Positions 18,360 through 36,277 of a stretch of 64,000 bases of DNA are shown piece by piece. Position 1 is the stretch's first letter; every line of letters starts with the position of its first letter. Source of the DNA: Candidatus Dojkabacteria bacterium (lineage in GTDB: Bacteria > Patescibacteriota > Dojkabacteria > B142 > JAFGFJ01); the NCBI GenBank assembly GCA_016931155.1, contig JAFGFJ010000006.1:220389-284388 (forward strand). Direction: 5' to 3'. The position numbers and the translations under genes are program-made. The notes beneath the pieces were generated by a model, which ran no database searches, was not told the DNA's origin, and was given only the letters and a program-made list of their open reading frames with translations.

Positions 18360-18437
18360 GGTGGCTGTAGCTCAGTTGGTTAGAGCTTCGGTTTGTGGAA
18401 CCGAGTGTCGTGGGTTCGAGTCCCACCAGCCACCCCA
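18360..18437 (+). tRNA. tRNA-His (anticodon GTG) with encoded G-1 and encoded CCA
   Basis: G-1 (18360) pairs with discriminator C. Acceptor GTGGCTG/CAGCCAC. Anticodon loop TTGTGGA. T-arm GTGGGTTCGAGTCCCAC. The 3' end is followed by CCA. Confidence 0.85.
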
Positions 18438-19919
18438 ATTTAGACTGCTACTCGTTTCAAAGATGCTATCAAAAGGCTTTTGCATTGTGTAGATTATCTT
18501 TCCAGCTTTATATGACAGGTTCTGAAGTGTAAGTTGAATAATTTCCCTTTTTTCTTCTGGTTCTGAACCTGTAAATAGCTCAAAACTCTTGGAAGCCAAT
18601 TCCAGTAAATAAGAAGCATTTATATAATATTCTTCATCTGCCTGTTCCAAGCGAGCTAATTTATCCTTAAATTCCTGCTGTTCCTGTCTAAAGCGTTTAC
18701 GCAAATTGTCATATTCTTCCTGAGTAATACTACCATCAAGCTTATCTATATAGAGCCTTTCTATTCTACCTTCGAGTTTCTTTATCTGGTTATTATATTC
18801 ATCGAACATTTCGGTATTGAAATTGATTTTACCTTCATGTGCTTCTTTGAGTGTACCAACCATATGCTGTAAATAAGTTTTGGGAATATGCATCTTCTTA
18901 TATATTTCAGAAAACTGCTTAGTAAGGCTCTTTTCTTCTATCCAGATGTCCTCGTGTTTTCCTCTCGCACCTGTGCAGTGATAGTAGATATAAGAATGGA
19001 TGTTCCCGTTTTTTTGCTTCTTGGTGTGTAATTCAGGGGTCATACTGCAACCACACTCTTTGCAGTATATTAAGCCCCTGTAGCTACCATGTTTACCTAC
19101 GAACTTACCTTTGCGATTATTTTTATATCGTCTATTTCTGACACTTTCACACATTTGCCAGACATCTTTAGTAACTAATGTCGCATACTTATGTGGACCG
19201 ATTTCACCATTTAGTTCCCGCATTCCATAATAGAAAGGGTTCTTAAGAATTTTTTCAACTTTACTTTTGTAAATATCTGCATTTATGTCTAACTTAAGTT
19301 TTTGTGATATTTGTAAATAAGAGTAAGAACCAGAGGAGTACCAATCAAATATTTTTTTAACAATCCCAGATTCAAAAGGAAGCACCATAACCCCTGCTTT
19401 TTTAGTATTTTCATCCCTGCAATTCTTATACCCATAGGGTACTCGACCATATACTTCATGAGTTCTTAATTTACTTTGTATAGTATTATGAGTATCTTCC
19501 TGACATCTATTAATATGTTGCTTTGCAAGAAACACTTTCATATCCCAGTCTACTATATCTCTTCCGAAGCTCTTTGAAGTAAGGACAAGCCTATCATCAA
19601 CAAAATGGAGTTCTTTATCAAAATCGATTCTTAGAGAGTCCATTTCAACTGCATCCCTGTAGTTTCTTGTTAATCTATCAACTCGAAAGCCTATGATGGC
19701 TTTTATTTCACTATCAGTCTTAATAAAATCAATCATTTCATCGAATTTCTTTCTCAGTTTCTGACTGGCAGTTTCCTGAAAAACAAACTCCTTTATTACT
19801 TCAAGGTTATTGTCCATGGCGTACTGTCTTAGCTTGGGCAACTGAATTTCCTCGATTGACAATCCCTGTTTTTGTTGTTCTGGGGTAGATACTCTAGCCA
19901 GAATTATTGCTTTTTTCAT
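18372..19919 (-). CDS. large serine recombinase (phage-type serine integrase); last ~22 codons of the ORF are antisense to tRNA-His
   Basis: Resolvase N-domain AIILARVSTPEQ (Ser nucleophile) ... RVDRLTRN. Recombinase domain. Zn-ribbon CKECGCSM...YYHC. Coiled-coil C-region. The ORF stop is supplied from inside the tRNA-His gene. Confidence 0.85.
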   Translation of the reverse strand: MKKAIILARVSTPEQQKQGLSIEEIQLPKLRQYAMDNNLEVIKEFVFQETASQKLRKKFDEMIDFIKTDSEIKAIIGFRVDRLTRNYRDAVEMDSLRIDFDKELHFVDDRLVLTSKSFGRDIVDWDMKVFLAKQHINRCQEDTHNTIQSKLRTHEVYGRVPYGYKNCRDENTKKAGVMVLPFESGIVKKIFDWYSSGSYSYLQISQKLKLDINADIYKSKVEKILKNPFYYGMRELNGEIGPHKYATLVTKDVWQMCESVRNRRYKNNRKGKFVGKHGSYRGLIYCKECGCSMTPELHTKKQKNGNIHSYIYYHCTGARGKHEDIWIEEKSLTKQFSEIYKKMHIPKTYLQHMVGTLKEAHEGKINFNTEMFDEYNNQIKKLEGRIERLYIDKLDGSITQEEYDNLRKRFRQEQQEFKDKLARLEQADEEYYINASYLLELASKSFELFTGSEPEEKREIIQLTLQNLSYKAGKIIYTMQKPFDSIFETSSSLNWGGWWDSNPRHSVPQTEALTN

Positions 19920-20319
19920 TTAAAAAATTTAATATTTTCTCTACAGAATCACTCAGACTCTTTTCAATTTCGCATTCCCAAATATACAAGGTATTCCATC
20001 CCTGTGACTCCAGAATTTCCTTTACTTTTTTATCTCTAGCAATATTGCTATCGAGTTTTGTATTCCAGAATTTTTTATTAGTTTTAGGTCTATAAGTATT
20101 GCTGCAACCATGTTGATGCCAGAAACAACCATGAACAAAAACCACACTCTTCTGCTTCAGAAATACAAGGTCAGGTTTACCAGTGAGTTTATATTTCAGT
20201 CTATATCGAAACCCTTTCCTGTGAAGTTCTTTTCTAATAAGTATTTCTGGCTTTGTATCATTGCCTGTTATTCTGGACATGTTCCAGCTTCTTCTTGTTT
20301 TCGTCAGTTTGTCTGTCAT
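19894..20319 (-). CDS. vsr: very-short-patch-repair (T:G mismatch) endonuclease Vsr
   Basis: DTKPEILIRKELHRKGFRYRL...KPDLVFLKQKSVVFVHGCFWHQH...LYIWECEI. Near-canonical Vsr signature. Confidence 0.9.
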   Translation of the reverse strand: MTDKLTKTRRSWNMSRITGNDTKPEILIRKELHRKGFRYRLKYKLTGKPDLVFLKQKSVVFVHGCFWHQHGCSNTYRPKTNKKFWNTKLDSNIARDKKVKEILESQGWNTLYIWECEIEKSLSDSVEKILNFLNEKSNNSG

Positions 20320-21497
20320 TATTTCTGTACATAATCAACGTATTTAATGAAAGTTCCGAGAGAGTAAATCTTTCTTTGATATTCTTTAGGGTAAGCAGAA
20401 ATATAATCTTTAGGGACAACCAGTTTTACATCGTTTTCGTACATCTCTTTCAATTGATTAGATGAGATACCCTGTTGTAAGGTGAACAGATGTTTAACTC
20501 TTATTCTGTCTGCCTCATTAAGAATCTGTCTCCATCTATCTTTACAGGTAGTTTTTGCAGCTAGAAATATGAGTTTGTCTGTCTTAAAACTGCCGTTTCT
20601 GTATGATTCTATATCTGGAAAAATAAAATCAGGTTTTTTATTCCCTTCAGTCACTGGTTGTTCGTCAAATTTTAATTCGAAGATATTGAACATTTTAGAT
20701 AGATGATGTTCAAGTGATTTCCCAGCCCTGCTTTTTCTTCTCTGTAAAACTGAATTTGCAGATTTTATGAAATCGTCAATACTTTTGAATGGGTTCTTTA
20801 TTAAAGGCGCATATCTATCATTTTCTATAGCTTTGAACAATTGATACTCTGTATCCAGCCATCTTAAAAGTTCTCTATCTGGCATCTTTTTTATCTCAGG
20901 AGTATTTATATTTTGTGCTTTGATAATAATTCCCCTTGCATTATCGGCAAGTTCCGTAGAGGTAGGAAAATCTACTTTTAAGGTTTCAATATAACTTTGG
21001 AATAAGTCTTCAAGTTTTGCATCAATATCTATAACATTACTCTTTGGTATTATCCTATTTGTTTCACTTGGACTTAAACCGAAAGCGCTTAAGAAATCTT
21101 CTGTATCATCATCTGAAGAGAGAACAAACGCTTCATAATAATCATCAGTAATTCTGCCTATAACTATAAGATTTCCTATATTATTCTCTTGCAGAAAAGG
21201 AAAATTTCTTCCAAATCTTGTCAACCTGTATTCATTTCTAGTTCCTGTCCCATAATAAATGAATCTGCTTTCTGTTTCGAAATCTCCTTGCCATTTAATT
21301 TTTACAAATTTATCTTTATTGCTTCCCTTGACACCTGCCTTATCGAAGAATAAAGGATAGGAATTTCTATGAAGGTAAAAGCCGCTTTGATGAGCCCCTG
21401 TGGCTACGGTGTCGTTAGCAGTAATGAACTTGGTAAATGCAATATCACTTTTATTAACAAGATTTATTGCGTTATTTACAAGATTATTTTCTGTCAT
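20319..21497 (-). CDS. EcoRII-family type IIE restriction endonuclease (expected specificity CCWGG-like)
   Basis: N-terminal effector block FITANDTVATGAHQSGFYL (EcoRII: LSANDTGATGGHQVGLYI). C-terminal catalytic region ANSVLQRRKSRAGKSLEHHL...TEGNKKPDFIFP...AAKTTCKDRWRQILNEADRI...HLFTLQQG is almost colinear with EcoRII. Confidence 0.85.
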   Translation of the reverse strand: MTENNLVNNAINLVNKSDIAFTKFITANDTVATGAHQSGFYLHRNSYPLFFDKAGVKGSNKDKFVKIKWQGDFETESRFIYYGTGTRNEYRLTRFGRNFPFLQENNIGNLIVIGRITDDYYEAFVLSSDDDTEDFLSAFGLSPSETNRIIPKSNVIDIDAKLEDLFQSYIETLKVDFPTSTELADNARGIIIKAQNINTPEIKKMPDRELLRWLDTEYQLFKAIENDRYAPLIKNPFKSIDDFIKSANSVLQRRKSRAGKSLEHHLSKMFNIFELKFDEQPVTEGNKKPDFIFPDIESYRNGSFKTDKLIFLAAKTTCKDRWRQILNEADRIRVKHLFTLQQGISSNQLKEMYENDVKLVVPKDYISAYPKEYQRKIYSLGTFIKYVDYVQK

Positions 21498-22717
21498 TAC
21501 AAGTATTTAATAACTGATTTTGCCAGATGTTCCATTAGTGGAACAACTACTGAGTTGCCAAACTGCTTATAGGCTTGAGTATCTGAAACAGGAATGATGA
21601 AATTTTCTGGAAAACCCTGCAGCCTTGCACATTCCCGTGGGGTTAATTTTCGTGGATTTTTACCTTCCTGTGGAATCAGTATTTCTGAACCATCCTTGTA
21701 ATATCTGGCACTAAGTGTTCTAGTTACCCCGTTAAAATCAGCGAGTCCAAAACCAAATCCATTGCCCTTTTCTCTATGTTTTTTTGCATAGCTTTGAAGA
21801 TATTCCCATAGCTTGTCTGAGAGAGTGTATTTTTCATCGATATCCTTATCCAGAATATCAGAGAGTTTAGTCTTATTTAGTGGTACTTCAGGGAAACTGA
21901 AATTTTCTTCATTATTAAAAATGTCATTATTGAAGGCTACTACTATCGTTCTTTCTCGATGTTGAGGGACAAAATGTTTGCCATCAAAAACCTGAAAGTA
22001 TGGTGTGTAGTTCAAATCAGTAAGAGTGTTAAGTATGACTTTAAAGGTATTTCCTTTATCGTGAGACATGAGGTTTTTTACATTCTCTAAAAAAAGTATT
22101 TTAGGTCTCTTTTCTTTTACAATTCTTGCTATATCAAAGAATAATGTTCCCTTTGTACCATCAAGAAATCCATGATTAACTCCCATGCTTATCTTTTTGG
22201 ATACACCAGCGATTGAAAAAGGTTGACATGGAAATCCTGCAAGTAAGATATCATGATCTGGAATATCTTTTTCATCAATCTTTGTAATGTCACCTGCAGG
22301 AGTTTCTTTGAAGTTTGCTTCGTAAGTTTTACAAGCATAAGTGTCAATTTCAGAAGAAAAGACAGAAATACCCCCCTGTTTTTCAAATCCGATTCTTATA
22401 CCGCCAATTCCTGCGAACAGGTCTATGAATTTGAACTTGCCTGTTTTCTTCTCAGGTTTAATATCGTTGGGAAATATACCTGAGTTATCAAAACCCAGTT
22501 GAGGTTCAATAAGTGTATCTATTCTTACATCAAGTGCATTTGCAATTCTGACTACAGTTTCTATAGTTGGATTATGTTGAACCCCGCTTTCCAGTTTTGT
22601 AATAGTAGAGTAGGTAACACCCGATCGTTCAGCCAGGTCTTTTTGGGTCAGACCTCGAATTTTTCTCTCCCTTTCTATCTTTAATGCTATGTTTGACATA
22701 TGTGTTAATAATTTCAT
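21497..22717 (-). CDS. DNA (cytosine-5)-methyltransferase (Dcm/M.EcoRII-like) with fused N-terminal XRE-type HTH domain
   Basis: HTH (LTQKDLAERSGVTYSTITKLESG). C5-MTase motifs FDLFAGIGGIRIGF (I), GFPCQPFS (IV), ENV (VI). TAATG overlap with the REase start. Confidence 0.9.
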   Translation of the reverse strand: MKLLTHMSNIALKIERERKIRGLTQKDLAERSGVTYSTITKLESGVQHNPTIETVVRIANALDVRIDTLIEPQLGFDNSGIFPNDIKPEKKTGKFKFIDLFAGIGGIRIGFEKQGGISVFSSEIDTYACKTYEANFKETPAGDITKIDEKDIPDHDILLAGFPCQPFSIAGVSKKISMGVNHGFLDGTKGTLFFDIARIVKEKRPKILFLENVKNLMSHDKGNTFKVILNTLTDLNYTPYFQVFDGKHFVPQHRERTIVVAFNNDIFNNEENFSFPEVPLNKTKLSDILDKDIDEKYTLSDKLWEYLQSYAKKHREKGNGFGFGLADFNGVTRTLSARYYKDGSEILIPQEGKNPRKLTPRECARLQGFPENFIIPVSDTQAYKQFGNSVVVPLMEHLAKSVIKYL

Positions 22718-22741
22718 TCTATTGATATATTATACCCAGTG

Positions 22742-23887
22742 TTAATTCATATCAAGTTTATTTAACTTAACTTTTTCAAACTTACTTAATTTACTTAGTA
22801 ACGACTTGAAAGGACTCTTTGTTTTACTTACAACAAGCTGTTTCATTTCCTTATTTAGTCTATACCAGCTTGTTTTTCCAAACCTGTCTGTCACCTTCCT
22901 AAACTTTCTAACACCTATTTCCTCAAGTGCTACTTTTGCTCCAAAATAGACGAGTAACTTTCTGTAGCCAAGCTTTGGATTATTCAGTTGCAGTTCGGTT
23001 AAGATTCCTTCAAATGTCTCAGTTTCAACCATTAGTAGCTTTGGATAAGAAGATTCTATCTCTTTAATTATAGCAAGTAGTAGCTTCTTAGATAGTTTTT
23101 TGCTGTAGAGGTCTGTAAAAATGAGCTGTTTATTCTTAAAGGAGTATTTTTCAAGCAATTGCTTCATCTTTCTTCTGCTTCCTATCCTTACTTCGACTCG
23201 TAGGACTTCGAAAGGCTTCTTTGACTGTGGTTGGTCAAATAAACTCAATTGTGTGTAGTTATCCTTCTCTATAGCACGTTTTTCAGATAGTTTTGCCTGT
23301 TTTAGGTCTTTTAACTTGTCGTATAGAATAACTTCAAAATCATTACTGTGATATTTAATTGAGTGACCTTCATTTCTGAAGTCTGTACTATTCATGTCTA
23401 ATAGTCTATTTACGTTTATTTTACTTACCTCTTTCAGGATGGAGTAGGGCGTAGAATAGTCTGTAAGTACAATATTCTTTGAATAATGGACAGTAGATAC
23501 ATCTGCATTTGCTAGAATTTGTATATCCTCGATCTTTACTCCCATAATAAACAGTAAATCCTTTAGTTTCCAGCATATTTCACCGAAGTCTGATTCTTCT
23601 ACTTCATCAAAGTTGTTTCCATGAAGCAGTTTGGGGATGGAGAACTCAACCTTGAGGAATATAGTAAAACCACCTCTTCTAAGAGCTTTAAATATGGTTA
23701 GACGGGGTAAGTAGCCATGTTGCTGTTTGTCTGCCTTCGTGGGGTTATTTGTAGCCTTAAAAGGTGCTCTGGCAGTGACTTTAATGAAGGGGGGTACAAA
23801 TAGGTTTTCTGTTGAAGGTGAAAACTTATTATGGTCTAGAATCTTGAAGTCTTTTTCTTCAATTGTCAGTGAAATTGTATCTATCAT
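22742..23887 (-). CDS. hypothetical protein, possibly a Rep_trans-type (rolling-circle) replication initiation factor
   Basis: 381 aa. Blocks such as EVILYDKLKDL and VRIGSRRK resemble the conserved G-S-R...Y-D-K region of phage/plasmid Rep_trans proteins. Not verifiable without a profile search. Confidence 0.3.
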   Translation of the reverse strand: MIDTISLTIEEKDFKILDHNKFSPSTENLFVPPFIKVTARAPFKATNNPTKADKQQHGYLPRLTIFKALRRGGFTIFLKVEFSIPKLLHGNNFDEVEESDFGEICWKLKDLLFIMGVKIEDIQILANADVSTVHYSKNIVLTDYSTPYSILKEVSKINVNRLLDMNSTDFRNEGHSIKYHSNDFEVILYDKLKDLKQAKLSEKRAIEKDNYTQLSLFDQPQSKKPFEVLRVEVRIGSRRKMKQLLEKYSFKNKQLIFTDLYSKKLSKKLLLAIIKEIESSYPKLLMVETETFEGILTELQLNNPKLGYRKLLVYFGAKVALEEIGVRKFRKVTDRFGKTSWYRLNKEMKQLVVSKTKSPFKSLLSKLSKFEKVKLNKLDMN

Positions 23888-24146
23888 TGTTCATTACGTT
23901 TTTTAAGTAATTATTTACTTCCTCCTCAATCAGGCTACCTGTCTGTTTGTTTATTGGATGAAAAAGATTCATATCCCTGTTCCCAATGTGTTTGGTAGGG
24001 TAAACAAGCCTGTAATCCCTATCGGGCTTGGTAAAGATAGCCACAGAACTGCAATAAATAGCTTCAAATAAGACAAAGCTACAAAACGCAATTAAGCCAT
24101 TGTTTGGTTTCACTGGAATTACTTGTATTTCACTTATTATTTTCAT
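23859..24146 (-). CDS. SpoVG-family nucleic-acid-binding protein
   Basis: 95 aa. IQVIPVKPNNGLIAFCSFVLFEAIYCSSVAIFTKPDRDYRLVYPTK...FHPINKQTGSLIEEEVNNYL matches the SpoVG pattern (V.P....GL.A.ASI.LD..F.VH.IRVI....G.FVA.PS......DIAHPIN...R..I...V...Y). Confidence 0.55.
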   Translation of the reverse strand: MKIISEIQVIPVKPNNGLIAFCSFVLFEAIYCSSVAIFTKPDRDYRLVYPTKHIGNRDMNLFHPINKQTGSLIEEEVNNYLKNVMNNDRYNFTDN

Positions 24147-24341
24147 TGCTTTGTCTTTTTGAGTCTTTTGTCTATATCAATAAATATCTGAAATAGTTTT
24201 AGAACTCGCTCTTGTTCTTCAGAGGTTTTACAAACAGAACAATTGTCAGGTAAAGGCACCTGATCCTTGTTGTATATAGTTTGTAAATGCTTATCCTCAG
24301 TTTGCATATACTGAGGATACAGAGTGGGTAGTTACGTAAAG

Positions 24342-24962
24342 TTACGTGACAAGTGAAGGATTTACCTGAATAGTCTTAGTTTTTACAATTAGAAACTTTT
24401 TAACGTCAGTTTTCTTAGCAACTTTCTCATTAACTCTCTTTCCTGCTCTGTAAACTACTTTGTTATCGATATTTTCTGTTGATTCACCCCATTCCTCAAC
24501 GATTTCATCCCATGACCATTCTTTTTTCATGGACTCTGTGTCTTTGAGGATAACCTTTAGAAGCTTATTTTCTAGGGAATCGGAGGGAAAATCCCTAATT
24601 AGTTCATTCTGAAGTAAAAGTGCTGGAATGTCGGGGTAATACTTTGGGATACTCTTTCTCTTTGACCTTCTTAGATTCTCCTTCATTTCCTTAAGCTCGA
24701 TTCGGAGTTTTTCATATTGTAAGTGCTTCGTCCTGTCTTCTTCTGTGTCGTAAGTATACATTCCGTCAGCGCTACCGTGTAGTAGAAATTCTGCTATACG
24801 CCTTAATTGCTGAACAACTGGGTCTTCTCCTATTGTTGGAGTTCTTTTACCAACAAACCCAATTTGGAACTCTATTTTGCCCAATATTTTATTTAGTTGA
24901 ACAAGTTCTTCTTTGATTTCGTTTAGTGAGGAAGTTATGTTTTCATTTGAATCATTTTTCAT
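24342..24962 (-). CDS. hypothetical protein (charged, coiled-coil-like)
   Basis: 206-aa ORF co-directional with the integrase / R-M / Rep-like genes. No recognisable motif. Confidence 0.4.
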   Translation of the reverse strand: MKNDSNENITSSLNEIKEELVQLNKILGKIEFQIGFVGKRTPTIGEDPVVQQLRRIAEFLLHGSADGMYTYDTEEDRTKHLQYEKLRIELKEMKENLRRSKRKSIPKYYPDIPALLLQNELIRDFPSDSLENKLLKVILKDTESMKKEWSWDEIVEEWGESTENIDNKVVYRAGKRVNEKVAKKTDVKKFLIVKTKTIQVNPSLVT

Positions 24963-24999
24963 TACGTCTTCGTTCTACTACTCTACAATAAGTTATGGA

Positions 25000-25731
25000 C
25001 TATTTACATTCTTCATCCTTGTTCTTATCAAGAATATAGTCCTTTATCTTCCAGTAATTATCTACTATTTTTTGATAGTTGTTAGCAAATATCTCCTGTA
25101 AATTACTGTCAGTTCTTAACTTTTCTTTAAGGTCTTGTAGATAGTTAATTAAATCAAAAAATAAGCAGAAGTTATTAACCAAAATCTCGTTCCTATGATA
25201 CCTTAAATGGCAATAACCTTTCCTGTTTTTTGCGATTTTGAAGTACTCAGATAGTTCCTCTAATGATTTAGGAGCATCGTGTTTTAAGTAATTAGACTGA
25301 AAGAACCACGACTCCTGTCTATCTTTCCTAGTTGCTCCTTTTCTTATAGTATCAATTATATGGGGTAGGGGACGGACATTATGGACTAGATCATGCCTAT
25401 AGACCTGCACAAGATAGCTCCTGTACCTTTTGTATTTTGAATTTACATATTTATCGTAAGGCATAAAGTCATTAAGTACTATTTTTATTCTTTCTGTTTG
25501 TTTTTTCCCTGTGTGAATATACATTAGAGAAGCAATGTGATCTGTAAAACAAAAAATATTCCTTGCTATAGTAAAAAGGCCTATTTGACTTTCTAATAAA
25601 GGGAAAATATCTCCTTTTAGTTGGTCTATTAAATCAGATACATATTCATAAGGTTGGAAACTTTTTCCTGGAAGAACGGCTAAATGAAATAGACCTTTAT
25701 CTTTGTTCACTACTGTAAGGTGTGTGGTCAT
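25000..25731 (-). CDS. hypothetical protein
   Basis: 243-aa ORF, first gene of the minus-strand string. No recognisable motif. Confidence 0.4.
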   Translation of the reverse strand: MTTHLTVVNKDKGLFHLAVLPGKSFQPYEYVSDLIDQLKGDIFPLLESQIGLFTIARNIFCFTDHIASLMYIHTGKKQTERIKIVLNDFMPYDKYVNSKYKRYRSYLVQVYRHDLVHNVRPLPHIIDTIRKGATRKDRQESWFFQSNYLKHDAPKSLEELSEYFKIAKNRKGYCHLRYHRNEILVNNFCLFFDLINYLQDLKEKLRTDSNLQEIFANNYQKIVDNYWKIKDYILDKNKDEECK

Positions 25732-25953
25732 GAAAAGGTGGAATAACTATAGAATTATACTCTAATGTACAAGCCTATAATTGAAGAGCAATGTTTTCCA
25801 TATATGAACTTTCTATGAGCCTTTTTATATTGTTTACGTTTATAGTAATCTCAGTAGATTGGTTCATGAACGAGTCTAATAAGTGACCCCACTACCAGGA
25901 AACTCGCCCTAAAAGACGCTTGCACTCCATAAATACTCGTGTTATTATCGATT

Positions 25954-27207: not shown

Positions 27208-27210
27208 TAG

Positions 27211-27239
27211 TACCAAAATTCCTTCCACCAGCCACCCCA
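27211..27239 (+). repeat. att-like direct repeat copy A (TACCAAAATTCCTTCCACCAGCCACCCCA); last 15 nt identical to the 3' end of tRNA-His including CCA
   Basis: CCACCAGCCACCCCA at 27225-27239 equals 18423-18437. Lies 4 nt after the ATPase stop. Confidence 0.8.
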
Positions 27240-27404: not shown

Positions 27405-28019
27405 ATGAGAAGAAAAACACTTTTTACAAATTTTATAAACACACCCTACTTTACAAAGCAGGATCTATTGGTTTTGGCTGATAAATTCAATATCTCTGAG
27501 ACAAGTATTAACACGTTAATTCAGAGATCTATCAAAAGCAAGGAAATCATCTCATTAAAAAGAAATTGTTATGTTAATAGAGAATTTTTTCTTAAGAATA
27601 GAGATAATCTAGAGTATAAGTTCTTTGTTGCCAATATATTGATAAAATCCTCGTATATTAGCCGAGAAACCGCTCTACAGTATTACGGACTACTTTCCGA
27701 AGCATCACTGAACTATTTTACTTCTACTACTATCAAGCTACCTAGAAAATTTGAGAAATCACTCGGTATTTTTGAATACAGAAATATTAAGGATGAACTT
27801 TTTAATGGATATAAGAGTGTAAGATTTTCGATTGGTGGAAATGAATATTCGTACCTAATAGCAGAACCCTACAAAGCAATATTTGATTATATATATTATC
27901 GTACAAGTAAAAGGTCAATATCTGAAGGATTACTTATGTCAGTAATGAATGAGCTCAGAATAAATTACCATGACCTTGAAAAGGATCAGCTAGATAAATT
28001 AATTAATTCTTTTAAATAA
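27405..28019 (+). CDS. AbiEi-like antitoxin / transcriptional regulator (type IV TA system), putative
   Basis: 204-aa protein immediately upstream of, and abutting, an AbiEii-type nucleotidyltransferase gene (stop at 28017-28019, ATG at 28020). N-terminal wHTH-like region. Assignment is mainly by synteny. Confidence 0.45.
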   Translation: MRRKTLFTNFINTPYFTKQDLLVLADKFNISETSINTLIQRSIKSKEIISLKRNCYVNREFFLKNRDNLEYKFFVANILIKSSYISRETALQYYGLLSEASLNYFTSTTIKLPRKFEKSLGIFEYRNIKDELFNGYKSVRFSIGGNEYSYLIAEPYKAIFDYIYYRTSKRSISEGLLMSVMNELRINYHDLEKDQLDKLINSFK

Positions 28020-29285: not shown

Positions 29286-29326
29286 ATATTAATGAACAAC
29301 TCTCAAGAGAATACGGTTTAACCAAC

Positions 29327-29349
29327 GTTCCAAAATTCCTTCCACCATT
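29327..29349 (+). repeat. att-like direct repeat copy C (GTTCCAAAATTCCTTCCACCATTA), degenerate
   Basis: Shares GTTCCAAAATTCCTTCCACCA with copies A and B. Sits 42 nt after the AbiEii stop. Confidence 0.6.
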
Positions 29350-29437: not shown

Positions 29438-30598
29438 ATGAATGAAACTGAATCAGGTATAAAAATAAGTACGGCTGATTTCAGACTACTCCAACCCTAT
29501 TCAGACTATTTAACGAAAGCTGTGAGTCCTTTGTGGGGAGAAGTTTCTTCATCTAAACCTGGAGATTCGCTTTTCGAACTTGGGCGGATCGCGTTATCCA
29601 ATAAGGCTTTAGTCGAAGATATCCATGTTTCTCACTTGAGAGATACAATTATAGAGAATGAAGTCAATCCATACCTGGTCAAGTTAGTCTCCAATTTTGA
29701 CAAGTACAGTGAATTGATAGACAAGATCCAGAGAAAAAAAACTGACTTAACTTGGGATGATGAGCGACTTCATGAGGATGGATTACCTGAGAATCTTTTT
29801 GAAGAACACAGGGCATATCAGAAGGAACTGTATCATCCAACACCAGTATGCTTACGAGATTTACATATAGAGAGTTTGGACATTCTGTGTGAATATGAGG
29901 TTAATCCCAAATTAAGAAAATTTATCAATAAAATTGGTGGGATTGCTCTGTTCGAAGAACTAATTGCTCTTGCAACTAAGCAAGACTCTGTGGACTTGGA
30001 TAGAGTAGTCCCCTTTACTGACCTCGCCTACCAAGGACTAAATAAATGGTCAGTCCTATTAGAGCCTGTTTCGCCACCTCTTTTTTGTTTGCTCAGTAAA
30101 GATAATAGATTACTTCTGAAAGAACAGAATCCCAAGTTGCTAGAAATTCTTGAAAGATTTTTTCTACTAGAATTTGGACCTCATAATTCATCAGTGTATG
30201 TTGTTCCTTCGGTCGAAAATCCAACAGGATCTTTGTCAAGGGAGTACGAATTAGATTTATTATATTTAGAGCAACATAAAATGAAAGAAGAGGAATATAT
30301 TAACCTTCTTGGTGAATTATGTATGAGTTTTCATAAAGTTAAAGAAGGGACGCGAAGTTACACCTTTAAGGGAGTAGAATTTAGAAAATTGTCTATTTCT
30401 CATTATGATGAGAGATCCCCATTCACTGGGGAAATACCAGAACAGGAAGATTTTGATTTGGTTCTATACAAGGGAGGGAAAGAGGTTGGGGTAATTCCGA
30501 GTTGCTGGAAATACTTTGCGAGTGAGGGTATTTATGAGTCACCTGGTGCAAGATTCTCTTTTAGCCCTAGAAAGATTCTCCCCTTATTTGCTAAATGA
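29438..30598 (+). CDS. hypothetical protein (386 aa), single-gene module between two att-like repeats
   Basis: Good-length ORF. No motif recognised. Flanked by repeat C upstream and repeat B downstream. Confidence 0.45.
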   Translation: MNETESGIKISTADFRLLQPYSDYLTKAVSPLWGEVSSSKPGDSLFELGRIALSNKALVEDIHVSHLRDTIIENEVNPYLVKLVSNFDKYSELIDKIQRKKTDLTWDDERLHEDGLPENLFEEHRAYQKELYHPTPVCLRDLHIESLDILCEYEVNPKLRKFINKIGGIALFEELIALATKQDSVDLDRVVPFTDLAYQGLNKWSVLLEPVSPPLFCLLSKDNRLLLKEQNPKLLEILERFFLLEFGPHNSSVYVVPSVENPTGSLSREYELDLLYLEQHKMKEEEYINLLGELCMSFHKVKEGTRSYTFKGVEFRKLSISHYDERSPFTGEIPEQEDFDLVLYKGGKEVGVIPSCWKYFASEGIYESPGARFSFSPRKILPLFAK

Positions 30599-30616
30599 GA
30601 AGTTCAAGGGAAATAG

Positions 30617-30644
30617 TTCCAAAATTTCTCCCACCAGCCACCCC
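30617..30644 (+). repeat. att-like direct repeat copy B (GTTCCAAAATTTCTCCCACCAGCCACCCC); 16 nt identical to the tRNA-His 3' end
   Basis: TCCCACCAGCCACCCC at 30629-30644 equals 18421-18436. Lies 19 nt after the 386-aa gene stop. Confidence 0.8.
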
Positions 30645-30684
30645 GCAAAATTTCTAGGTCCATTATCAATAAAGGCCTTCTTGT

Positions 30685-31611
30685 TCATTTTGTTATTTGC
30701 TTCGAGTTCTGTAACATACTTTTTACTTTAGCGAGAGCAGAAGAATCGGATTTGCATTTGATAAGGTAACTATATGCTGAAAACAAATGAAAAATGTAAT
30801 ATCCTCGCACTTTTTCCATTGTTACTGGTACATTCATAATTTTTTCATATTGTTTAACAAAAGTGATGAAGTTCTCAGAAATGTCATAGAAATTAAACCA
30901 ATACATGATTATCCCCAGTTCTGCATGATTGTCTCCAATACGATGACTTTCAAAATCCAGTACAGCAGTTACATTAGTGTCCTTTACCAATATATTCTGA
31001 GGATTGTAATCCCAATGCAACGGGCATAACATCGGAAGTGAATTTGAGATTAAGCCAACTAATTCTTGAATTTTACTGTCAAAATATTTATGTGCATTTG
31101 AATCTATAATGCCCTGTCTTGTGAGTAACATTAGGTCTGGGCGCCATTTTTTTACTGCAGATATCCAGTCTGAATTGTTGTTGCATGGAGCATTCTCATT
31201 TTGCCATATCTCTTTGTTGGGTAGTTTGTGAAGTCCAGCAAGATTTCCAGCAATACTGTGAAGTAATTTCTTAGAGACAGTCTTATCAATTATTCTATAA
31301 TAGAAGGTCTCTCCTTCCAGGTACTCCTGGATTAACAAACTAAACTCAGTAGTAAAACAGAAATCAAGGAATAATGTTTTGGGAACAGGATACTTATATC
31401 GAATGAGCAAATCATCAATGTCGGTTGATCTTTTAATTCTCTCCTTGTAACTGATGGGAAAGATTTTACAGATGTACTTTTTGCCAGTACTTAATGCTGC
31501 AACTTTAAATACTTGACTTTTTGAGAGACCAGTATCGAATTTGTTTATTGAAAGGGGAGGCGAGGGGCTCTTCAAAAACTTACTAAAACCTTCAGTAATG
31601 ATATCTTCCAT
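30685..31611 (-). CDS. protein-kinase-like phosphotransferase (APH / choline-kinase fold)
   Basis: Brenner/catalytic-loop motif HWDYNPQNILV and DFE(S) in place of DFG. N-terminal ATP-binding lobe. 308 aa. Confidence 0.55.
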   Translation of the reverse strand: MEDIITEGFSKFLKSPSPPLSINKFDTGLSKSQVFKVAALSTGKKYICKIFPISYKERIKRSTDIDDLLIRYKYPVPKTLFLDFCFTTEFSLLIQEYLEGETFYYRIIDKTVSKKLLHSIAGNLAGLHKLPNKEIWQNENAPCNNNSDWISAVKKWRPDLMLLTRQGIIDSNAHKYFDSKIQELVGLISNSLPMLCPLHWDYNPQNILVKDTNVTAVLDFESHRIGDNHAELGIIMYWFNFYDISENFITFVKQYEKIMNVPVTMEKVRGYYIFHLFSAYSYLIKCKSDSSALAKVKSMLQNSKQITK

Positions 31612-31652
31612 AAACTATTATAGCGAATATTCTGTAGAGGAATGCAGGATTA

Positions 31653-31677
31653 GTTCCAAAACTCTTTCAAGGAGGGC
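31653..31677 (+). repeat. possible degenerate att-like repeat copy E (GTTCCAAAACTCTTTCAAGGAGGGC)
   Basis: About 17 of 23 positions match the repeat consensus. Sits just upstream of the kinase-like gene start. Confidence 0.3.
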
Positions 31678-31943: not shown

Positions 31944-32519
31944 ATGGGTAAATATATTATTCCATTCTACTTCTTTTTCCTATTTATAACCGGAATACTC
32001 GTTGGTCCACAGATGGTCTTTTTGTTGGTCGGCTGGGTCGGTATATTTGCTTTCATTAAAATTAAAGGTTTTGATAGTGGTCTTCCTTCCAGATATGAAA
32101 AAGTATTTACTGCCACCGCATTGCTCTATCCACTTATAGAAACAGCAATAAAATTTGTAATTGAAAGGGATTTGATTCCTTATTCATGGATCTGGCTTAA
32201 TAGGATCGAACATTTTGGTTTCAGTGCTTTTCTTGTAATACTTATCTTTCCTGTTATTAGACGATTCTATATAAAGCTGGACTTGATCGGTCAGATAGTA
32301 TTTGTAGTTGGAATTATTGTGTTTCTTGGAAATATTAATGAATTTGTTGAATACCTGGTACGTTTAATGCTTAATCTTCGCTCAAAATTTGGACATTACT
32401 ATGAAGATACTATTATTGACTTGTTTGTAAATATGTTGGGAGCATTTGCGGGTTTTGGCCTGTTAAAACTTGTACTCGATAAAAAGAGAAAGAATAAGGA
32501 GAGAAATAATCTAAGATAA
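31944..32519 (+). CDS. hypothetical integral membrane protein (about 5 TM)
   Basis: 191-aa hydrophobic ORF with a basic C-terminal tail. Confidence 0.45.
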   Translation: MGKYIIPFYFFFLFITGILVGPQMVFLLVGWVGIFAFIKIKGFDSGLPSRYEKVFTATALLYPLIETAIKFVIERDLIPYSWIWLNRIEHFGFSAFLVILIFPVIRRFYIKLDLIGQIVFVVGIIVFLGNINEFVEYLVRLMLNLRSKFGHYYEDTIIDLFVNMLGAFAGFGLLKLVLDKKRKNKERNNLR

Positions 32520-33096
32520 TTTCTTTTAGAAGACCTATCAATTTAGGAGCATTTTTAAATGCGTAGTGGCGTGTGAGTTATTTTTGTCGTAATGCACTTT
32601 ATATTATTTTTTGAAGTAGCTTTGAAGTAGCTTTGAAGTAGCAAGTTATTCCATCAATAGAATATATCTTTAATGAAAGAAGGTGAGGAAACGCTTTTAC
32701 TATAAAAGTGTTTAAAGCTTGAATGTTTAGAGGTAGTGGGGGGAATGTATTGATATGGCAGTGTTTTGTATTATAATCACTCATACAATTCCAATTATAA
32801 TGCCATCGGAAGTTGATAGACAAAATAATACTGATGAAATAAGTGAATTCATGAATCAACGGGCGGGGGAGTTTTCTCATTTAGGTTCAGATCATACAAG
32901 AGAAGGATATATTCGCTTATCAGAAGATATGTTTATTGGTATATGTAGGTTATGTCCTGATTCACCAAAAATTCCTCCTGGAACTCTTCGTTATTTAGGG
33001 CAGGATTTAGGTAACAGCTGCTTAAGCAGTATTACCCATAGTGAAGAATTTTAGGCTAATAAACCTGAAAGCTATGATAGGATTGATATTTCTTAT

Positions 33097-33948
33097 GTGA
33101 GGAATGGAAATGGCTATTACTTTTTTTATAGGGGAGCTTTTCATGATGCTTATGACAGATATATTGAAGCTCAAGTGGTAACAATGGATACTTCTTCACC
33201 AATTACTCAGGAGGAGATGTTACATGCAGGAGAAGAAATTCTCAGAGAAAACGTATTGGATCTGGAGACAGTTGAGCCACATTTGGATAGAGCAGCAATA
33301 CTGGCAGTACACAGCTCGATAGTTTTAGATTCGATTTTGACGATGGCTGCAGTTGAAATGGGTGAGGAAGAATATTTGTATTGGCATGATAGAGCAAAAG
33401 AACAAACGGTGAAAGATGCTTTGGAGATAAGTGCAAAGAAAAGGGAGTCGCTTACTTTAATGGGGAAAAAGGTAAATGAAAGATTTATTTATCCATTTAT
33501 CACCAGAGAATACTTAGAAATTATATTGAATAACTTTCAAGAAATGTACATTGATTTAATGTTTTGCGGGAATATGAATCGAGAGAAGACAAGAGTTAGC
33601 GAGGATATGGCAAGTATGCTTGAGCTCGTATTGCTATCTTATGGTGAAGAACATAGAGGATTGCTACAGCAACTATTACATATTGAAGATGAGGTCAATG
33701 GGAAAATTGTTAATGTTGCGGATCAAGCAATAGAATTTGGCAAAAGATTGCTTCAATATGCCAAGGGAACCGCCCTTGAGGTAGCCATAGTAAGGCATCA
33801 TAAGCCTTTAACTAGACCACTAAAAGAACTTAGCTTAGACTACAAGATAGGGGACTTATGTGCAGTATCAGATATTGACAAGTTATCCAATTTGGGACTG
33901 CCTGCAATGTTAACCTTGAGAGATCTTAAAAGAATAGGTTCTTTATAA
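33097..33948 (+). CDS. hypothetical protein (GTG start)
   Basis: 283-aa ORF. No recognisable motif. Abuts the next gene. Confidence 0.4.
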   Translation: MRNGNGYYFFYRGAFHDAYDRYIEAQVVTMDTSSPITQEEMLHAGEEILRENVLDLETVEPHLDRAAILAVHSSIVLDSILTMAAVEMGEEEYLYWHDRAKEQTVKDALEISAKKRESLTLMGKKVNERFIYPFITREYLEIILNNFQEMYIDLMFCGNMNREKTRVSEDMASMLELVLLSYGEEHRGLLQQLLHIEDEVNGKIVNVADQAIEFGKRLLQYAKGTALEVAIVRHHKPLTRPLKELSLDYKIGDLCAVSDIDKLSNLGLPAMLTLRDLKRIGSL

Positions 33949-33957
33949 TTTCTTTTT

Positions 33958-35544
33958 ATGGTGAGTTCTATTTTGAAGGAAAAAGTAAGAATGATACTTA
34001 AGAACAAAATGCTTCTTATCTTAATCATATCTGCCCTGGTTTTAATTCCCCTTGTGACGGCAATCTCTGTTTATGCAATTTATAAGAATAATGAACGGAA
34101 ACAAAATAAAGAGAAGATTGAACAACAGGTATCACAAAATGAAACAACAAATGAGGAAGTAGAAGTGTTTACAGTACCTACTCCTCCCGGCATATGCGAA
34201 TTAGCAGTTAATAAGCTCTCAACAACAGTATCCCAAAAAATTGATGATAAAAGTAGAAAAGTATCAGTTGATTATTCATTTAAACAGGATGAGGAAGTCG
34301 ATTGTTTAGATCCAATAAAGGCCATGATAGATTCACTTACCTCCTTCAAGTATGATAACGGCTCTGAAGTGAATTTCCCGGGACCGGAAATAACGAAAGA
34401 TAAGATAATATTTGACCTATCAGAAGTGAAAAAACTTGGTAAAGGCAAGCTTTATTGGTTAGTTCAGTATGATGACAATTCGAATTCAATCGAAATTGGA
34501 AGCGTGGAAATTTTGGGTGCTGAGATCAGACAACCAACTACTACACCGACACCAACAACTGCACCATCATTAACAAAGGTGAAATACGAAGTTAAGGTTT
34601 TGTCGCTTTCATATTTCCCGATAAAGGAGGGGAAACTTGATACTACTATCTTGAATAATTCCTGGGGTGAGTACAATATGACGCTAGCACAAGTAAGACA
34701 AAAAGTTAGTGCAACTCAAAGCGAACTTATTTCTACTTTGGAAGAGGGCAGTAGATATAGGGCATATAAAGATGTTTCTGCTCCAATTGTAGTGGACTAC
34801 AATATACATAGTGCCAAAGAATATCTTGCCGCTGTACCTATTTCTACAAAGCCTAATCCATGGGATGGAAGTGTGTACATGACTGACTACAGGAAAATTC
34901 TTGAGGATCACGGGATATGCAACCTTGTTGAAAATCAGGGGGTTAAAGAGGTGTGGCTTTGGAGTTATACAGGTATTGGAAAATCCGGATGGGAATCCAA
35001 CTTTGCAGGGAAGAATGGCAGAGATATAAGTAATAGTGACAGAGATCCAGGTGATATGCCTATATGTGGGAAGAGCTACACAGTATACGAGTATAATTAC
35101 GGACGTGGTACCTCAGAAGCAACCGAAGATCACATGCATCAGTTTGAAGCAATATTTAATTTCGTAGATAGTAACCTGTTTTGGAATAAATTTGTGGGGT
35201 ATCACCCTTCAAATGGATCATATTCAGGGGATTCCAATAGAAGATGTGGATGGGCTCATTATCCGCCAAATGGAAGGCATGATTACGATTGGACTAATCA
35301 GAATTATGTTCAAAGCGATTGTATGGACTGGAATCCGGACTCTTTAGGTAAAACAACAACAATGAATTGCTCCAGGTGGAATTGTGATAGCAGAAGATTT
35401 TTCATATTCTGGATGCAAAGCCTGCCGGGTTATGGAAATACTATTACTTACCAGGGCAAGCAATTTAAGAATTGGTGGGGCTTCATTGCAGATTTTGATA
35501 ATGAAATGAATAAAGGACAAAGCCTAACGTTCCAGCAGAATTAA
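33958..35544 (+). CDS. secreted/membrane-anchored hypothetical protein (528 aa) rich in Trp/Asn/Cys in the C-terminal region
   Basis: N-terminal TM (MLLILIISALVLIPLVTAISVYAIY). PTTTPTPTT linker. C-terminal Trp/Cys-rich domain. Confidence 0.5.
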   Translation: MVSSILKEKVRMILKNKMLLILIISALVLIPLVTAISVYAIYKNNERKQNKEKIEQQVSQNETTNEEVEVFTVPTPPGICELAVNKLSTTVSQKIDDKSRKVSVDYSFKQDEEVDCLDPIKAMIDSLTSFKYDNGSEVNFPGPEITKDKIIFDLSEVKKLGKGKLYWLVQYDDNSNSIEIGSVEILGAEIRQPTTTPTPTTAPSLTKVKYEVKVLSLSYFPIKEGKLDTTILNNSWGEYNMTLAQVRQKVSATQSELISTLEEGSRYRAYKDVSAPIVVDYNIHSAKEYLAAVPISTKPNPWDGSVYMTDYRKILEDHGICNLVENQGVKEVWLWSYTGIGKSGWESNFAGKNGRDISNSDRDPGDMPICGKSYTVYEYNYGRGTSEATEDHMHQFEAIFNFVDSNLFWNKFVGYHPSNGSYSGDSNRRCGWAHYPPNGRHDYDWTNQNYVQSDCMDWNPDSLGKTTTMNCSRWNCDSRRFFIFWMQSLPGYGNTITYQGKQFKNWWGFIADFDNEMNKGQSLTFQQN

Positions 35545-35563
35545 TAGGTTTGTGTACAAATTT

Positions 35564-35613
35564 GTATAATCGATCTTGACTCTTCGGGCCTTGCCCCTAG
35601 AGTCTGAGTAAAT
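35564..35613 (+). ncRNA. conserved hairpin element L2 (GTATAATCGATCTT - GACTCTtcGGGCcttGCCCctAGAGTC - TGAGTAAATA); homologous to 6783-6837 and 40206-40260
   Basis: Perfect nested stem (outer 6 bp, inner 4 bp). Flanks are about 75% identical to element L1. Directly downstream of the 528-aa gene and directly upstream of repeat copy D. Could be a terminator-like RNA element or a small repeat family. Confidence 0.45.
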
Positions 35614-35618
35614 ATTGA

Positions 35619-35647
35619 TTTCCAAAATTCTTCCCACCATCCGCCCG
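35619..35647 (+). repeat. att-like direct repeat copy D (TTTCCAAAATTCTTCCCACCATCCGCCCG), degenerate
   Basis: Shares TTCCAAAATTCTTCCCACCA with copies A, B and C. The 3' part has diverged from the tRNA-His sequence. Confidence 0.55.
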
Positions 35648-35752
35648 ATTTATAATAGCTTCCAGTTGGGATGTTGAGTGAAATATTTTGATTATTAATC
35701 TTTCCATTATTTTATCTTATTGCTAAGCTTTGGCAGAAATTATTACTGAATT

Positions 35753-36199
35753 ATGAGCGACAAAAGAAATAGTCCTATGGACATTGTAAACGAGCTAGAA
35801 CGTTTGTATGGAACAAAAGAACACCCCAAAGTATCAGCTGTAGAAAATGTTCGAGAGTTAATGAATAGTGGAGTGGAGGCATTGACGATTGAAGGTCTGG
35901 ATAAGGAAAAGTATCTTGTTCCTGAGGCAGTTGGTGGAGATGAAAGACTTATAGATCCGAATTTTGAAATTACTCAAGATCTTTTTAAACAAAGAGTAAG
36001 GGAAGCTTGCCATGAAGTATATCCTGGCTATCCGCCTCTTGATGCAAGGTTGAAATTATCAAAGAAGGATGCGCACGACTTATCTGAAAGGGCAAAGACA
36101 GGAGAATTATCTATTCAAGCTATTCATAATGGAACAAATGCATGCTATGAACACCCAAATAGAGACTCAGGTAATGTTTATTTTGAATTTGAAATGTAA
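35753..36199 (+). CDS. hypothetical soluble protein (148 aa)
   Basis: ORF with no TM segment and no recognised motif. Followed at 36219-36245 by a weak, interrupted att-like repeat (GAGAAAATTTCATAAACCTCCCAATCA). Confidence 0.4.
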   Translation: MSDKRNSPMDIVNELERLYGTKEHPKVSAVENVRELMNSGVEALTIEGLDKEKYLVPEAVGGDERLIDPNFEITQDLFKQRVREACHEVYPGYPPLDARLKLSKKDAHDLSERAKTGELSIQAIHNGTNACYEHPNRDSGNVYFEFEM

Positions 36200-36277
36200 C
36201 AGATCCTTTTCCAGATGTGAGAAAATTTCATAAACCTCCCAATCAATATGACTTTTTGTGTCCCTAAAGAATATTTA

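Follow-up and report, generated by a model that had tools for sequence, protein, structure and literature searches.

The window, a stretch of 64,000 nucleotides from Candidatus Dojkabacteria (CPR), carries 17 kb of foreign DNA at tRNA-His, which was probably assembled by serial site-specific integration at this gene and later loss of the older backbones. The locus is a tidy example of a known mobile-element pile-up at one hot spot, building a defence island. Positions 18438-25891, next to the tRNA, hold an integrative element that is intact and belongs to a large CPR family with members of 7-10 kb, and five consecutive integrase-less modules of 1.0-4.0 kb each follow it. Serial tandem integration at tRNA-His was one of two options proposed in an earlier note on this DNA and is the better supported of them; the label given there to the source, Patescibacteria-like, was right since the host is Candidatus Dojkabacteria. 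Close relatives of the source genome are absent from the databases, in which every 90% cluster is a singleton.

The resident integrase element

The target gene and the resident element comprise the following features.
18361-18437, + strand: tRNA-His (GTG); ARAGORN; Rfam tRNA, 69 bits
18372-19919, - strand: large serine recombinase (integrase), 515 aa; Pfam PF00239, PF07508, PF13408
19894-20319, - strand: Vsr (cargo); Pfam
20319-21497, - strand: EcoRII-like endonuclease (cargo); Pfam
21497-22717, - strand: HTH-fused C5 cytosine methyltransferase (cargo); Pfam
22742-23887, - strand: Rep_trans-fold protein, 381 aa (conserved backbone)
23859-24146, - strand: SpoVG-like protein, 95 aa (conserved backbone)
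24342-24962, - strand: unknown, 206 aa (conserved backbone)
25000-25731, - strand: unknown, 243 aa (conserved backbone)
25860-25891, + strand: canonical attR (P arm and core) of the resident element, TGGTTCATGAACGAGTCTAATAAGTGACCCCA; PWM

The 515-aa protein has a Resolvase domain with the nucleophilic Ser (PF00239, E = 9.6e-12), as well as a Recombinase domain (PF07508, E = 1.3e-9) and a Zn_ribbon_recom domain (PF13408, E = 1.3e-7), both of which exceeded their curated cut-offs. Judged by these domains it is a large serine recombinase (phage-type serine integrase), and attP x attB integration is its predicted activity. Its homologues number 752, mostly of 496-517 aa; R9 and S11 showed no variation across 41 of them, and Cys 286, 289, 291, and 315 were invariant in the homologue alignment. 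Orthology to CcrA/B/C was rejected, with NCBIfam scores of 55 bits for CcrB and 46 bits for CcrC against cut-offs of 900 bits. The integrase ORF had been noted to read into tRNA-His, and the 66-nt overlap is there, but it results by accident from the lack of a stop codon; homologues stop 0-12 nt inside their own tRNA. The family-conserved sequence stops at about residue 495, a near-invariant Trp (W495) whose codon reads the tRNA CCA in reverse complement. The final ~20 residues come from reading through into antisense tRNA, and the real overlap is the conserved Trp codon on the CCA end only.

Members of the family have genes for a large serine integrase, for a protein of the Rep_trans fold (rolling-circle initiator-like), and for a SpoVG-like protein, and carry variable restriction-modification cargo, with different R-M systems occupying the same cargo slot in the homologous elements. 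The 381-aa backbone protein has the Rep_trans fold without a Pfam match (PF02486 membership); Y59 and Y189 were invariant in 43 homologues, and its homologues number 1414. The window's element and 7 of the 8 homologous elements examined had tRNA-His as their integration target; in the window, this gene is the attB, or the left arm of attL. In Patescibacteria such a family of 7-10-kb integrative elements is apparently undescribed.

Attachment sites of the family

The 32-nt arm at 25860-25891 scored 42.7 bits against the consensus from the distal ends of six homologous elements on other CPR contigs. With the same PWM, built from five attR arms at other loci, the maxima of shuffled windows averaged 8.7 bits and reached 15.0 bits at most, and no site in 880 kb of unrelated loci scored above 16.1 bits. 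This sixth junction, of a distinct sequence type, had been overlooked. As the right end of the integrase element lies here, the element spans 18438-25891 and measures 7.45 kb; what had been taken as an 8.8-kb first module is therefore two units, the 7.45-kb integrase element and a separate 1.35-kb DUF4143 ATPase module.

Among seven homologous elements whose fetched DNA included a tRNA-His, five had at their distal end a P arm of the conserved form (C/A)GGTTnnnRAAnnnGTCYAnTAAnnnACCC(C)A, as did the window's own element. Its distance to the tRNA was 6.8-8.7 kb, and the tandem array at locus L006 measured 9.6 kb from junction to junction. Intersecting the blocks of attL/attR identity at seven loci left only ACCCCA (18432-18437) common to the family, with AC (18432-18433) as the predicted central dinucleotide. 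The dyad scan peaked at an offset of -5, and the loci agreed in where the dyad of the reconstituted attP is centred. The sites thus combine what is expected of the att sites of large serine recombinases, namely a small identity core, a conserved P arm of ~32 nt, and imperfect dyad symmetry.

Decay was evident at related loci. L006 is a tandem array: a P arm with no tRNA beside it adjoins the 3' end of integrase P0004, and the far end has a canonical P arm next to a truncated integrase of 275 aa, which is of another lineage. At L002, lspA and a DUF4352 gene lie between an inner arm that has decayed and an outer arm that is intact. Both loci show decay intermediates, not cassettes.

Modules and repeats beyond the element

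The modules to the right of the element and the repeat copies between them are as follows.
25954-27207, + strand: module 2, DUF4143/AAA_14 ATPase, PADLOC candidate defence system PDC-S01; Pfam; PADLOC E = 3.7e-89
27210-27239, + strand: repeat copy A, full-length arm, GTACCAAAATTCCTTCCACCAGCCACCCCA
27405-29285, + strand: module 3, AbiEi/AbiEii toxin-antitoxin (abortive infection) pair; Pfam AbiEii; PADLOC E = 4e-30 (AbiEi) and 9e-33 (AbiEii)
29327-29347, + strand: repeat copy B, truncated, GTTCCAAAATTCCTTCCACCA
29438-30598, + strand: module 4, orphan protein, 386 aa, without family match
30616-30644, + strand: repeat copy C, next nucleotide G, not A, GTTCCAAAATTTCTCCCACCAGCCACCCC
30685-31611, - strand: module 5, APH-family phosphotransferase, the sole inverted module; Pfam PF01636
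31653-31668, + strand: repeat copy E, outer half of the arm only, GTTCCAAAACTCTTTC
31944-35544, + strand: module 6, four membrane/secreted unknowns of 191, 99, 283, and 528 aa
35619-35647, + strand: repeat copy D, outermost, three substitutions in the inner tRNA-like half, TTTCCAAAATTCTTCCCACCATCCGCCCG

The junctions attR1, A, B, C, E, and D bound five units, all without a recombinase gene. No relic of an integrase or of the backbone was detectable in them by tblastn or the family HMM; one marginal tblastn match (35547-35600, - strand, E = 0.007) was not confirmed by the family HMM. The left ends of the modules had no conserved motif. The gene content reported before was recovered, with Vsr, EcoRII-N/C, DNA_methylase, DUF4143/AAA_14, AbiEii, and APH supported by Pfam and AbiEi by PADLOC, according to which several modules carry one defence system apiece. 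Searches of Pfam, PHROGs, NCBIfam, and PADLOC gave no match for the 386-aa orphan. A DUF2238 match is listed for the 191-aa gene of module 6 in the Logan record.

The repeat array is real: the 20-nt pattern gave five matches against 0.08 expected, a count equalled in none of 100 shuffles. Four strong copies lie on the + strand (27210, 29327, 30616, and 35619) together with the half-copy at 31653. Each copy has an outer box, GTTCCAAAAT, followed by an inner half that reproduces as many as 16 nt of the tRNA 3' end; all five copies retain the outer 16 nt, and the inner half varies. Of the two weaker candidates proposed earlier, the one at 31653 held as an outer half-copy, with no mismatch to GTTCCAAAAYTYYTYC (8 matches in the scan against 1.5 expected) and four to the 21-nt pattern (such matches expected 0.13 times per window), while the one at 36219-36245 found no match in any pattern scan of the window. 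The 15-16 nt of tRNA 3' end had been assigned to copies A and B; the correct pair is the first and the third, with 15 nt including CCA in copy A (27225-27239) and 16 nt in copy C (30629-30644). In copy B, unrelated sequence follows CCACCA, and no more of the tRNA end is kept. All sites have a uniform orientation, 2-74 nt past the last gene of a module, and are confined to the 8.5 kb adjoining the tRNA-His island. The repeat was not found outside this locus, and no second genome had the same site.

Gapless alignment showed that the repeats share their register with the canonical P arms. In the register set by the tRNA CCA end, their outer 16 nt matched the P arm of locus L136 at 10-11 positions, where at least 10/16 matches occur at a background frequency of 0.001 per position and the canonical arms match one another at 8-14/16. 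The family PWM gave the repeats 7-9 bits and the tRNA itself 6.4 bits. The five repeats belong to the same arm family as a diverged subtype, and the suggestion that they descended from related attP arms is borne out by the match to the L136 arm. That the array is driven by the resident integrase does not follow, since the attR of that enzyme differs from the repeats, sharing 16 of 32 positions with them.

Origin of the array

Under accretion, tRNA-His would be an integration hot spot at which foreign DNA piled up. The integrase would recombine attP (a P arm of ~32 nt and a P' arm) with the tRNA-His 3' end, and an exchange inside ACCCCA, at the discriminator/CCA end, would leave the tRNA intact and only about 6 nt duplicated. 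The 7.45-kb integrase element would be the youngest arrival, and the five units on the right what is left of elements that had entered this site before it and were moved outward by each later integration. Deletion would have stripped the older integrases and backbones, retaining useful cargo (PDC-S01, AbiE, the orphan, the kinase, and the membrane proteins), and the older right ends may survive only as the diverged P-arm subtype fused to at most 16 nt of tRNA 3' end. We infer the event order, the backbone loss, and the enzyme of the older junctions, as well as the exact crossover dinucleotide. The truncated older integrase at the junction in L006 and the decayed inner arm of L002 support the model. 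Against it, five independent complete losses of integrase and backbone are not parsimonious, the repeats agree with the resident arm at 16/32 positions only, tRNA 3'-end repeats of at least 14 nt were found in none of the seven other loci, and the array repeat was found nowhere else. Large serine integrases normally recombine attP x attB only, and repeated integration beside a resident element, at attL, therefore needs a special explanation.

The absence of such repeats from the other serine-integrase loci would fit accretion by another enzyme, for example a tyrosine integrase, whose attR scars with a 15-16-nt identity segment the repeats would then be, the serine-integrase element being the latest, unrelated arrival. 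Tyrosine-integrase islands typically carry a direct repeat of 14-16 nt from the tRNA 3' end, and the family PWM separates the repeats little from the tRNA. We consider this explanation unlikely, however, because the CCA-registered outer arm matches the L136 P arm (p ~0.001 per comparison) and no tyrosine recombinase was found in the window ORFs tested or in the called upstream genes. The repeats might also belong to the host's ordinary intergenic sequence, as terminators, regulatory sites, or small RNAs with no link to mobile DNA, and they do lie directly downstream of genes. This reading is highly improbable and already contradicted by the results: folding z-scores were -1.6 to +0.7 with no hairpin common to the copies, terminator-like sites were found at none of them, no RNA structure or Rfam match was detected, and the repeats contain the tRNA 3' end and keep one orientation within the 8.5 kb by the island. 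The repeats are best regarded as attachment-site arms, chance and ordinary intergenic sequence both being ruled against.

The other option of the earlier note was a cassette-capture system. Here the modules would never have had an integrase; each would consist of 1-4 genes and one ~30-nt site, made of a serine-integrase P-arm box and a copy of the tRNA-His attB arm, and they would be inserted at the tRNA-His end, and could be excised and reshuffled, by a serine integrase working in trans. Five modules in succession without recombinase or backbone relic, co-oriented sites just past the last gene, the constant outer 16 nt beside a variable inner half, and the single defence system in several modules are all consistent with this. 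As copies A and C exactly reproduce the tRNA (attB-left) arm in their inner half, they could act as secondary attB-like sites. Such cassettes are nevertheless quite improbable and gained no positive support: the same site occurs in no second genome, the left ends of the modules share no motif, truncation or mutation affects three of the five sites where the crossover should lie, the resident integrase arm differs at half its positions, and decay, not cassettes, is what L006 and L002 show as related arrays. Serial integration with later loss of the older backbones is the preferred reading.

Relation to known systems

The organisation had been thought undescribed, but the same kind is documented for CIMEs (PMC5704250), SCC/ECC islands (PMC6222049), and tycheposon islands (10.1101/2020.12.28.424599). 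Accretion that leaves remnants without an integrase (CIMEs) is known, for example, from ICESt1/ICESt3 and streptococcal IMEs (PMC5704250). Like this locus, these systems occupy a single hot spot, the 3' end of a conserved gene, as tandem elements with att sites between them and older units that lack recombination genes but keep an att site, and composites of this type can arise via internal-site loss, as in L002. The locus here differs in its large serine integrase, its CPR host, the absence of conjugation genes, and remnants of only 1-4 cargo genes in which no pseudogenes were detected. In SCC/ECC islands, several attR sites accompany a single recombinase set, with multiple attR in 16 of 32 ECCs (PMC6222049). 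SCCmec/SCC/ECC also share large serine recombinases, the 3' end of a housekeeping gene, and highly variable cargo with this locus, whose target, however, is tRNA-His and not rlmH (orfX), whose single integrase is non-Ccr, and whose element is far smaller and carries an RCR Rep-like gene.

In the tRNA-anchored tycheposon islands of Prochlorococcus, new integrations push older elements outward (10.1101/2020.12.28.424599). These resemble this locus in their streamlined genome, partial tRNA copies, and scattered degenerate remnants; many tycheposons have replication genes, and a minority have large serine recombinases. Their hallmark is a deep-branching tyrosine recombinase, their remnants include integrase fragments, of which none was seen here, and their cargo is nutrient-acquisition genes, unlike the defence genes of this locus. 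With only a serine recombinase here, membership was rejected. Integrons are similar in their small, mostly co-oriented, promoter-poor units, each with a site-like repeat, beside an integrase gene. They differ in using the IntI tyrosine recombinase, and an attI site and Pc promoter are undefined here; membership was rejected, as the recombinase is not IntI and the repeats, by the folding scores above, lack attC-like hairpins. The cassette reading, if true, would give CPR bacteria a serine-recombinase, tRNA-anchored counterpart of the integron.

By accretion, a very small CPR genome would have gathered defence genes via one tRNA landing pad, deletion sparing the useful cargo. The 386-aa orphan, the kinase, and the membrane proteins are candidate defence genes by context. 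The att sites of this Patescibacteria family are predictable from sequence, and the family could give a site-specific integration tool for organisms currently without genetics.

The resident integrase and its family

The 515-aa ORF at 18372-19919 (minus strand) contained Resolvase, Recombinase and Zn_ribbon_recom domains, all above the Pfam cut-offs, which makes it a large serine recombinase. At the 3' end it runs into the second of two tRNA genes, for which ARAGORN and Rfam agreed:

18221-18294, +, tRNA-Arg(TCT)
18361-18437, +, tRNA-His(GTG)

The earlier note had the integrase gene reading into tRNA-His, and an overlap of 66 nt was indeed present, but in homologues whose tRNA supplies the stop codon the ORF ended 0-12 nt into the tRNA, and the conserved integrase sequence stopped at a near-invariant Trp (W495), encoded by the CCA end read in reverse complement. 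The overlap is read-through and no functional extension. The integrase protein was recorded only from the Logan assembly, and its neighbours have NCBI accessions (MBN1915872, MBN1915876 and others). Annotation of the gene is probably missing from the GenBank record, for which the tRNA overlap may be the reason. A 26-nt unit (consensus TAGTTTTTTTGCATAAAAATTTACGA) repeated seven times in tandem at 17834-18018 occupied the intergenic space between a divergent 227-aa gene and the tRNA-Arg/tRNA-His pair, and these units may form a stack of sites, either promoter-like or for protein binding.

The search for homologues of the integrase returned 752 proteins at E <= 1e-10, most of them from Patescibacteria. 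Contigs were fetched for eight with 56-70% identity (P0002, P0003, P0004, P0008, P0012, P0014, P0017 and P0022), and in seven of these the integrase gene abutted the 3' end of tRNA-His, as in the window. The gene order was conserved: the integrase came first, then a variable R-M system, frequently followed by an HTH_17 gene, and after these a protein of ~380 aa, a SpoVG-like protein and small unknowns. The window's 381-aa version of the ~380-aa protein has a Rep_trans fold, and its residues Y59 and Y189 are invariant. No close relative was found in the viral collection, searched with the integrase and with the integrase alignment, and identity to the phage integrases in GenBank phage records was at most 29%. 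The closest relatives in the phage collection, 28-29% identical over the full length, are encoded by MT837677.1 (6.4 kb) and MT836653.1 (9.3 kb). Both are short GenBank entries from human faeces, titled "Bacteriophage sp." and lacking annotation, and they may represent the free form of related small elements. No account of this CPR family of elements came up in the literature searches. Delimiting it as a widespread family of integrative elements, with att sites predicted, is one of the two most useful products of the analysis.

Element boundaries and predicted crossover

The distal ends of the homologous elements at five loci (L002, L006, L136, L145 and L148) carried a conserved arm of ~32 nt, (C/A)GGTTnnnRAAnnnGTCYAnTAAnnnACCCCA, beyond which the sequence was unrelated in each locus. 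The position weight matrix (PWM) built from these five P arms scored 42.7 bits at 25860-25891 of the window (TGGTTCATGAACGAGTCTAATAAGTGACCCCA) and 35.8 bits at the site in a further locus, L132, compared with maxima that averaged 8.7 bits (largest, 15.0 bits) over shuffled windows and reached 16.1 bits over 880 kb of unrelated loci. The site in the window is flanked by the 243-aa backbone gene on one side and the DUF4143 gene on the other. Given this canonical arm, the resident element spans 18438-25891 (7,454 bp), a length that fits the 6.8-8.7 kb covered by the family from the tRNA to attR, the distal junction of P arm and core (9.6 kb between the two L006 junctions). The DUF4143 ATPase, which had been placed in the first module together with the integrase, is separated from the integrase element by this junction and is a unit of its own.

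The sequence ACCCCA, the discriminator and CCA end, was the only one common to every attR and every attL (the tRNA-side junction) across the loci. In a dyad scan of the reconstituted attP, five of seven loci had their peak at one common offset, centred between A and CCCCA, with the maxima of L002, L132 and L136 at a neighbouring offset, and the predicted central dinucleotide, AC, corresponds to 18432-18433 of the window. Crossover at the CA of CCACCA, with the repeat copy at 27210-27239 as attR, was considered and dropped after the arm at 25860 and the intersection of identity blocks across loci; a dyad search on attP reconstituted from that copy gave noise only.

Repeat copies to the right of the element

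The repeat reported in the earlier note is real. Its consensus, with up to three mismatches, matched at 27210 and 30616 with no match expected by chance; a 20-nt pattern matched at 27211, 29328, 30617 and 35620 and once elsewhere in a coding region, with 0.08 matches expected; and a repeat search of the window returned one group, consisting of the same four copies. The 16-nt outer box GTTCCAAAAYTYYTYC also matched at 31653 without mismatch. The weaker candidate at 36219-36245 gained no support from the pattern or outer-box scans. The copies recovered were:

27210-27239, +, copy A, complete
29327-29347, +, copy B, cut after CCACCA
30616-30644, +, copy C, ending CCCCG in place of CCCCA
31653-31668, +, copy E, outer 16 nt only
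35619-35647, +, copy D, inner half with three substitutions

The 14-mer CCACCAGCCACCCC was present only in tRNA-His and copies A and C, so that the retention of 15-16 nt of the tRNA, ascribed to copies A and B, held for A but not for B; on the basis of the 14-mer it is the first and third copies that retain it. The original observation was sound but incomplete.

In a gapless alignment that took the CCA end as its anchor, copies A, C, D and B stood in register with the family arm. Their outer 16 nt matched the L136 arm at 10-11 of 16 positions, compared with 8-14 of 16 among the canonical arms themselves, and at least 10 matches to the L136 arm occurred with a background frequency of 0.001 per position in the window. 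The inner half was unlike the canonical arm and in copies A and C reproduced the arm of the tRNA itself exactly for 15-16 nt; because of this inner half, the PWM gave the repeats only 7-9 bits, compared with 6.4 bits for the tRNA itself. Our interpretation is that the repeats belong to this P-arm family as a diverged subtype, which agrees with the earlier proposal of related attP arms. The repeats matched the resident element's own arm at 13-17 of 32 positions over the full length, and a specific link between them and the resident integrase, including their use as its sites, is only putative.

Other identities of the repeats were ruled out: folded RNA by folding z-scores of -1.6 to +0.7, terminators since no copy lay at a terminator-like site, and a known RNA family by the lack of an Rfam match. 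The repeat was not found in public genome, metagenome or viral contigs; the pattern was too degenerate for the genome-contig scan (119 matches, all chance, in coding sequence), and the metagenome and viral scans each gave a single chance match, the former in a GC-rich gene. Repeats of at least 14 nt of the tRNA 3' end were absent from the other seven loci, and no shared motif was found at the left ends of the modules. A possible P' relic after copy E (TATCAAAAGG) was dropped as within chance expectation.

Probable accretion and decay

Two related loci gave evidence for accretion and decay in the family:

L006, 428-1255, 1215-1300 and 10840-10930, tandem array: tRNA-less junction, P arm and truncated integrase of another lineage
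L002, 4721-6058, lspA (signal peptidase II) and a DUF4352 gene, between decayed and intact copies of the terminal arm

The integrase of L006, P0004, did not adjoin a tRNA; its 3' end abutted a junction with arm-like sequence ending AGCTACCCCA on the left side. At the far end of its element, a canonical P arm met a second, different serine integrase at the latter's 3' end. Only a 275-aa remnant of this second integrase was left; it was 23% identical to P0004, aligned to residues 218-486 and had lost the catalytic domain. L006 is a tandem array caught mid-decay. Duplication was seen in L002, where a 41-nt stretch of the element terminus had an inner copy without the core and an outer copy that is a canonical attR; this suggests that accretion followed by loss of the internal site adds cargo to an element. 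The L002 element thereby carries lspA, normally a housekeeping gene.

With these loci showing accretion and decay, serial integration, one of two options in the earlier note, is the best-supported reading of the window and a fairly probable one. Its main weakness lies in the five older modules. When all backbone proteins and 120 integrase homologues were compared with 27.2-37.3 kb by tblastn, one marginal match was obtained (E = 0.007), at 35547-35600 (minus strand) between the 528-aa gene and copy D. Its translation LGARPEESRSIIQICTQ resembled GSEPEEKREIIQLTLQ, a motif conserved at the C-terminus of the family's integrases, and it was dropped as an integrase relic since the family HMM gave no support. 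The older modules therefore contain no detectable relic, and this is the main argument for the alternative, a cassette-like origin of these five modules in place of decay. No further recombinase was present among the downstream ORFs tested or the upstream genes called.

Large serine integrases normally recombine attP with attB only. Under serial integration, insertion beside the resident element might have been possible if the proximal parts of P' and B' were mutually similar, if the resident element had decayed before the next integration, or if the incoming integrase differed from that of the resident, as in L006. Exact look-ups of both flanking genes returned this genome only. So did clustering at 90% for nine proteins of the island and its flanks, all nine clusters being singletons, and SRR13394437 was the one sample in which the strain was present. 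The left flank gene had its closest homologue at 43% identity, in a position that was not syntenic.

This kind of organisation, which the earlier note took to be undescribed, is already known. Site-specific accretion with integrase-less remnants, as in the window, is documented in streptococcal ICE/IME/CIME tandems (PMC5704250), in SCC and the Enterococcus cassette chromosome, where several attR sites accompany one Ccr set in 16 of 32 ECCs (PMC6222049), and in the tRNA-anchored tycheposon islands of Prochlorococcus (10.1101/2020.12.28.424599). In contrast to SCC/ECC, the integrase of the window is not a Ccr orthologue.

Defence genes of the array

The second useful product is a clean defence island in a minimal genome. 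Pfam identified Vsr, EcoRII-N/C, an HTH-fused C5 methyltransferase, DUF4143/AAA_14, AbiEii and an APH-family kinase in the window, and a Na/Ca exchanger beyond the array. In PADLOC, the DUF4143 ATPase matched PDC-S01, a candidate defence system (E = 3.7e-89), the 204-aa protein was AbiEi (E = 4e-30) and AbiEii was upheld (E = 9e-33). The module genes named earlier (Vsr, EcoRII-like, Dcm-like, DUF4143, AbiEi/AbiEii and kinase-like) were thus confirmed. No match in the libraries searched, Pfam and PADLOC among them, was obtained for the 386-aa orphan or for any of the four genes in the last module. The orphan (29438-30598, plus strand) forms a module of its own between AbiE and the kinase in this defence-rich array, and by this context it is a candidate new defence gene.
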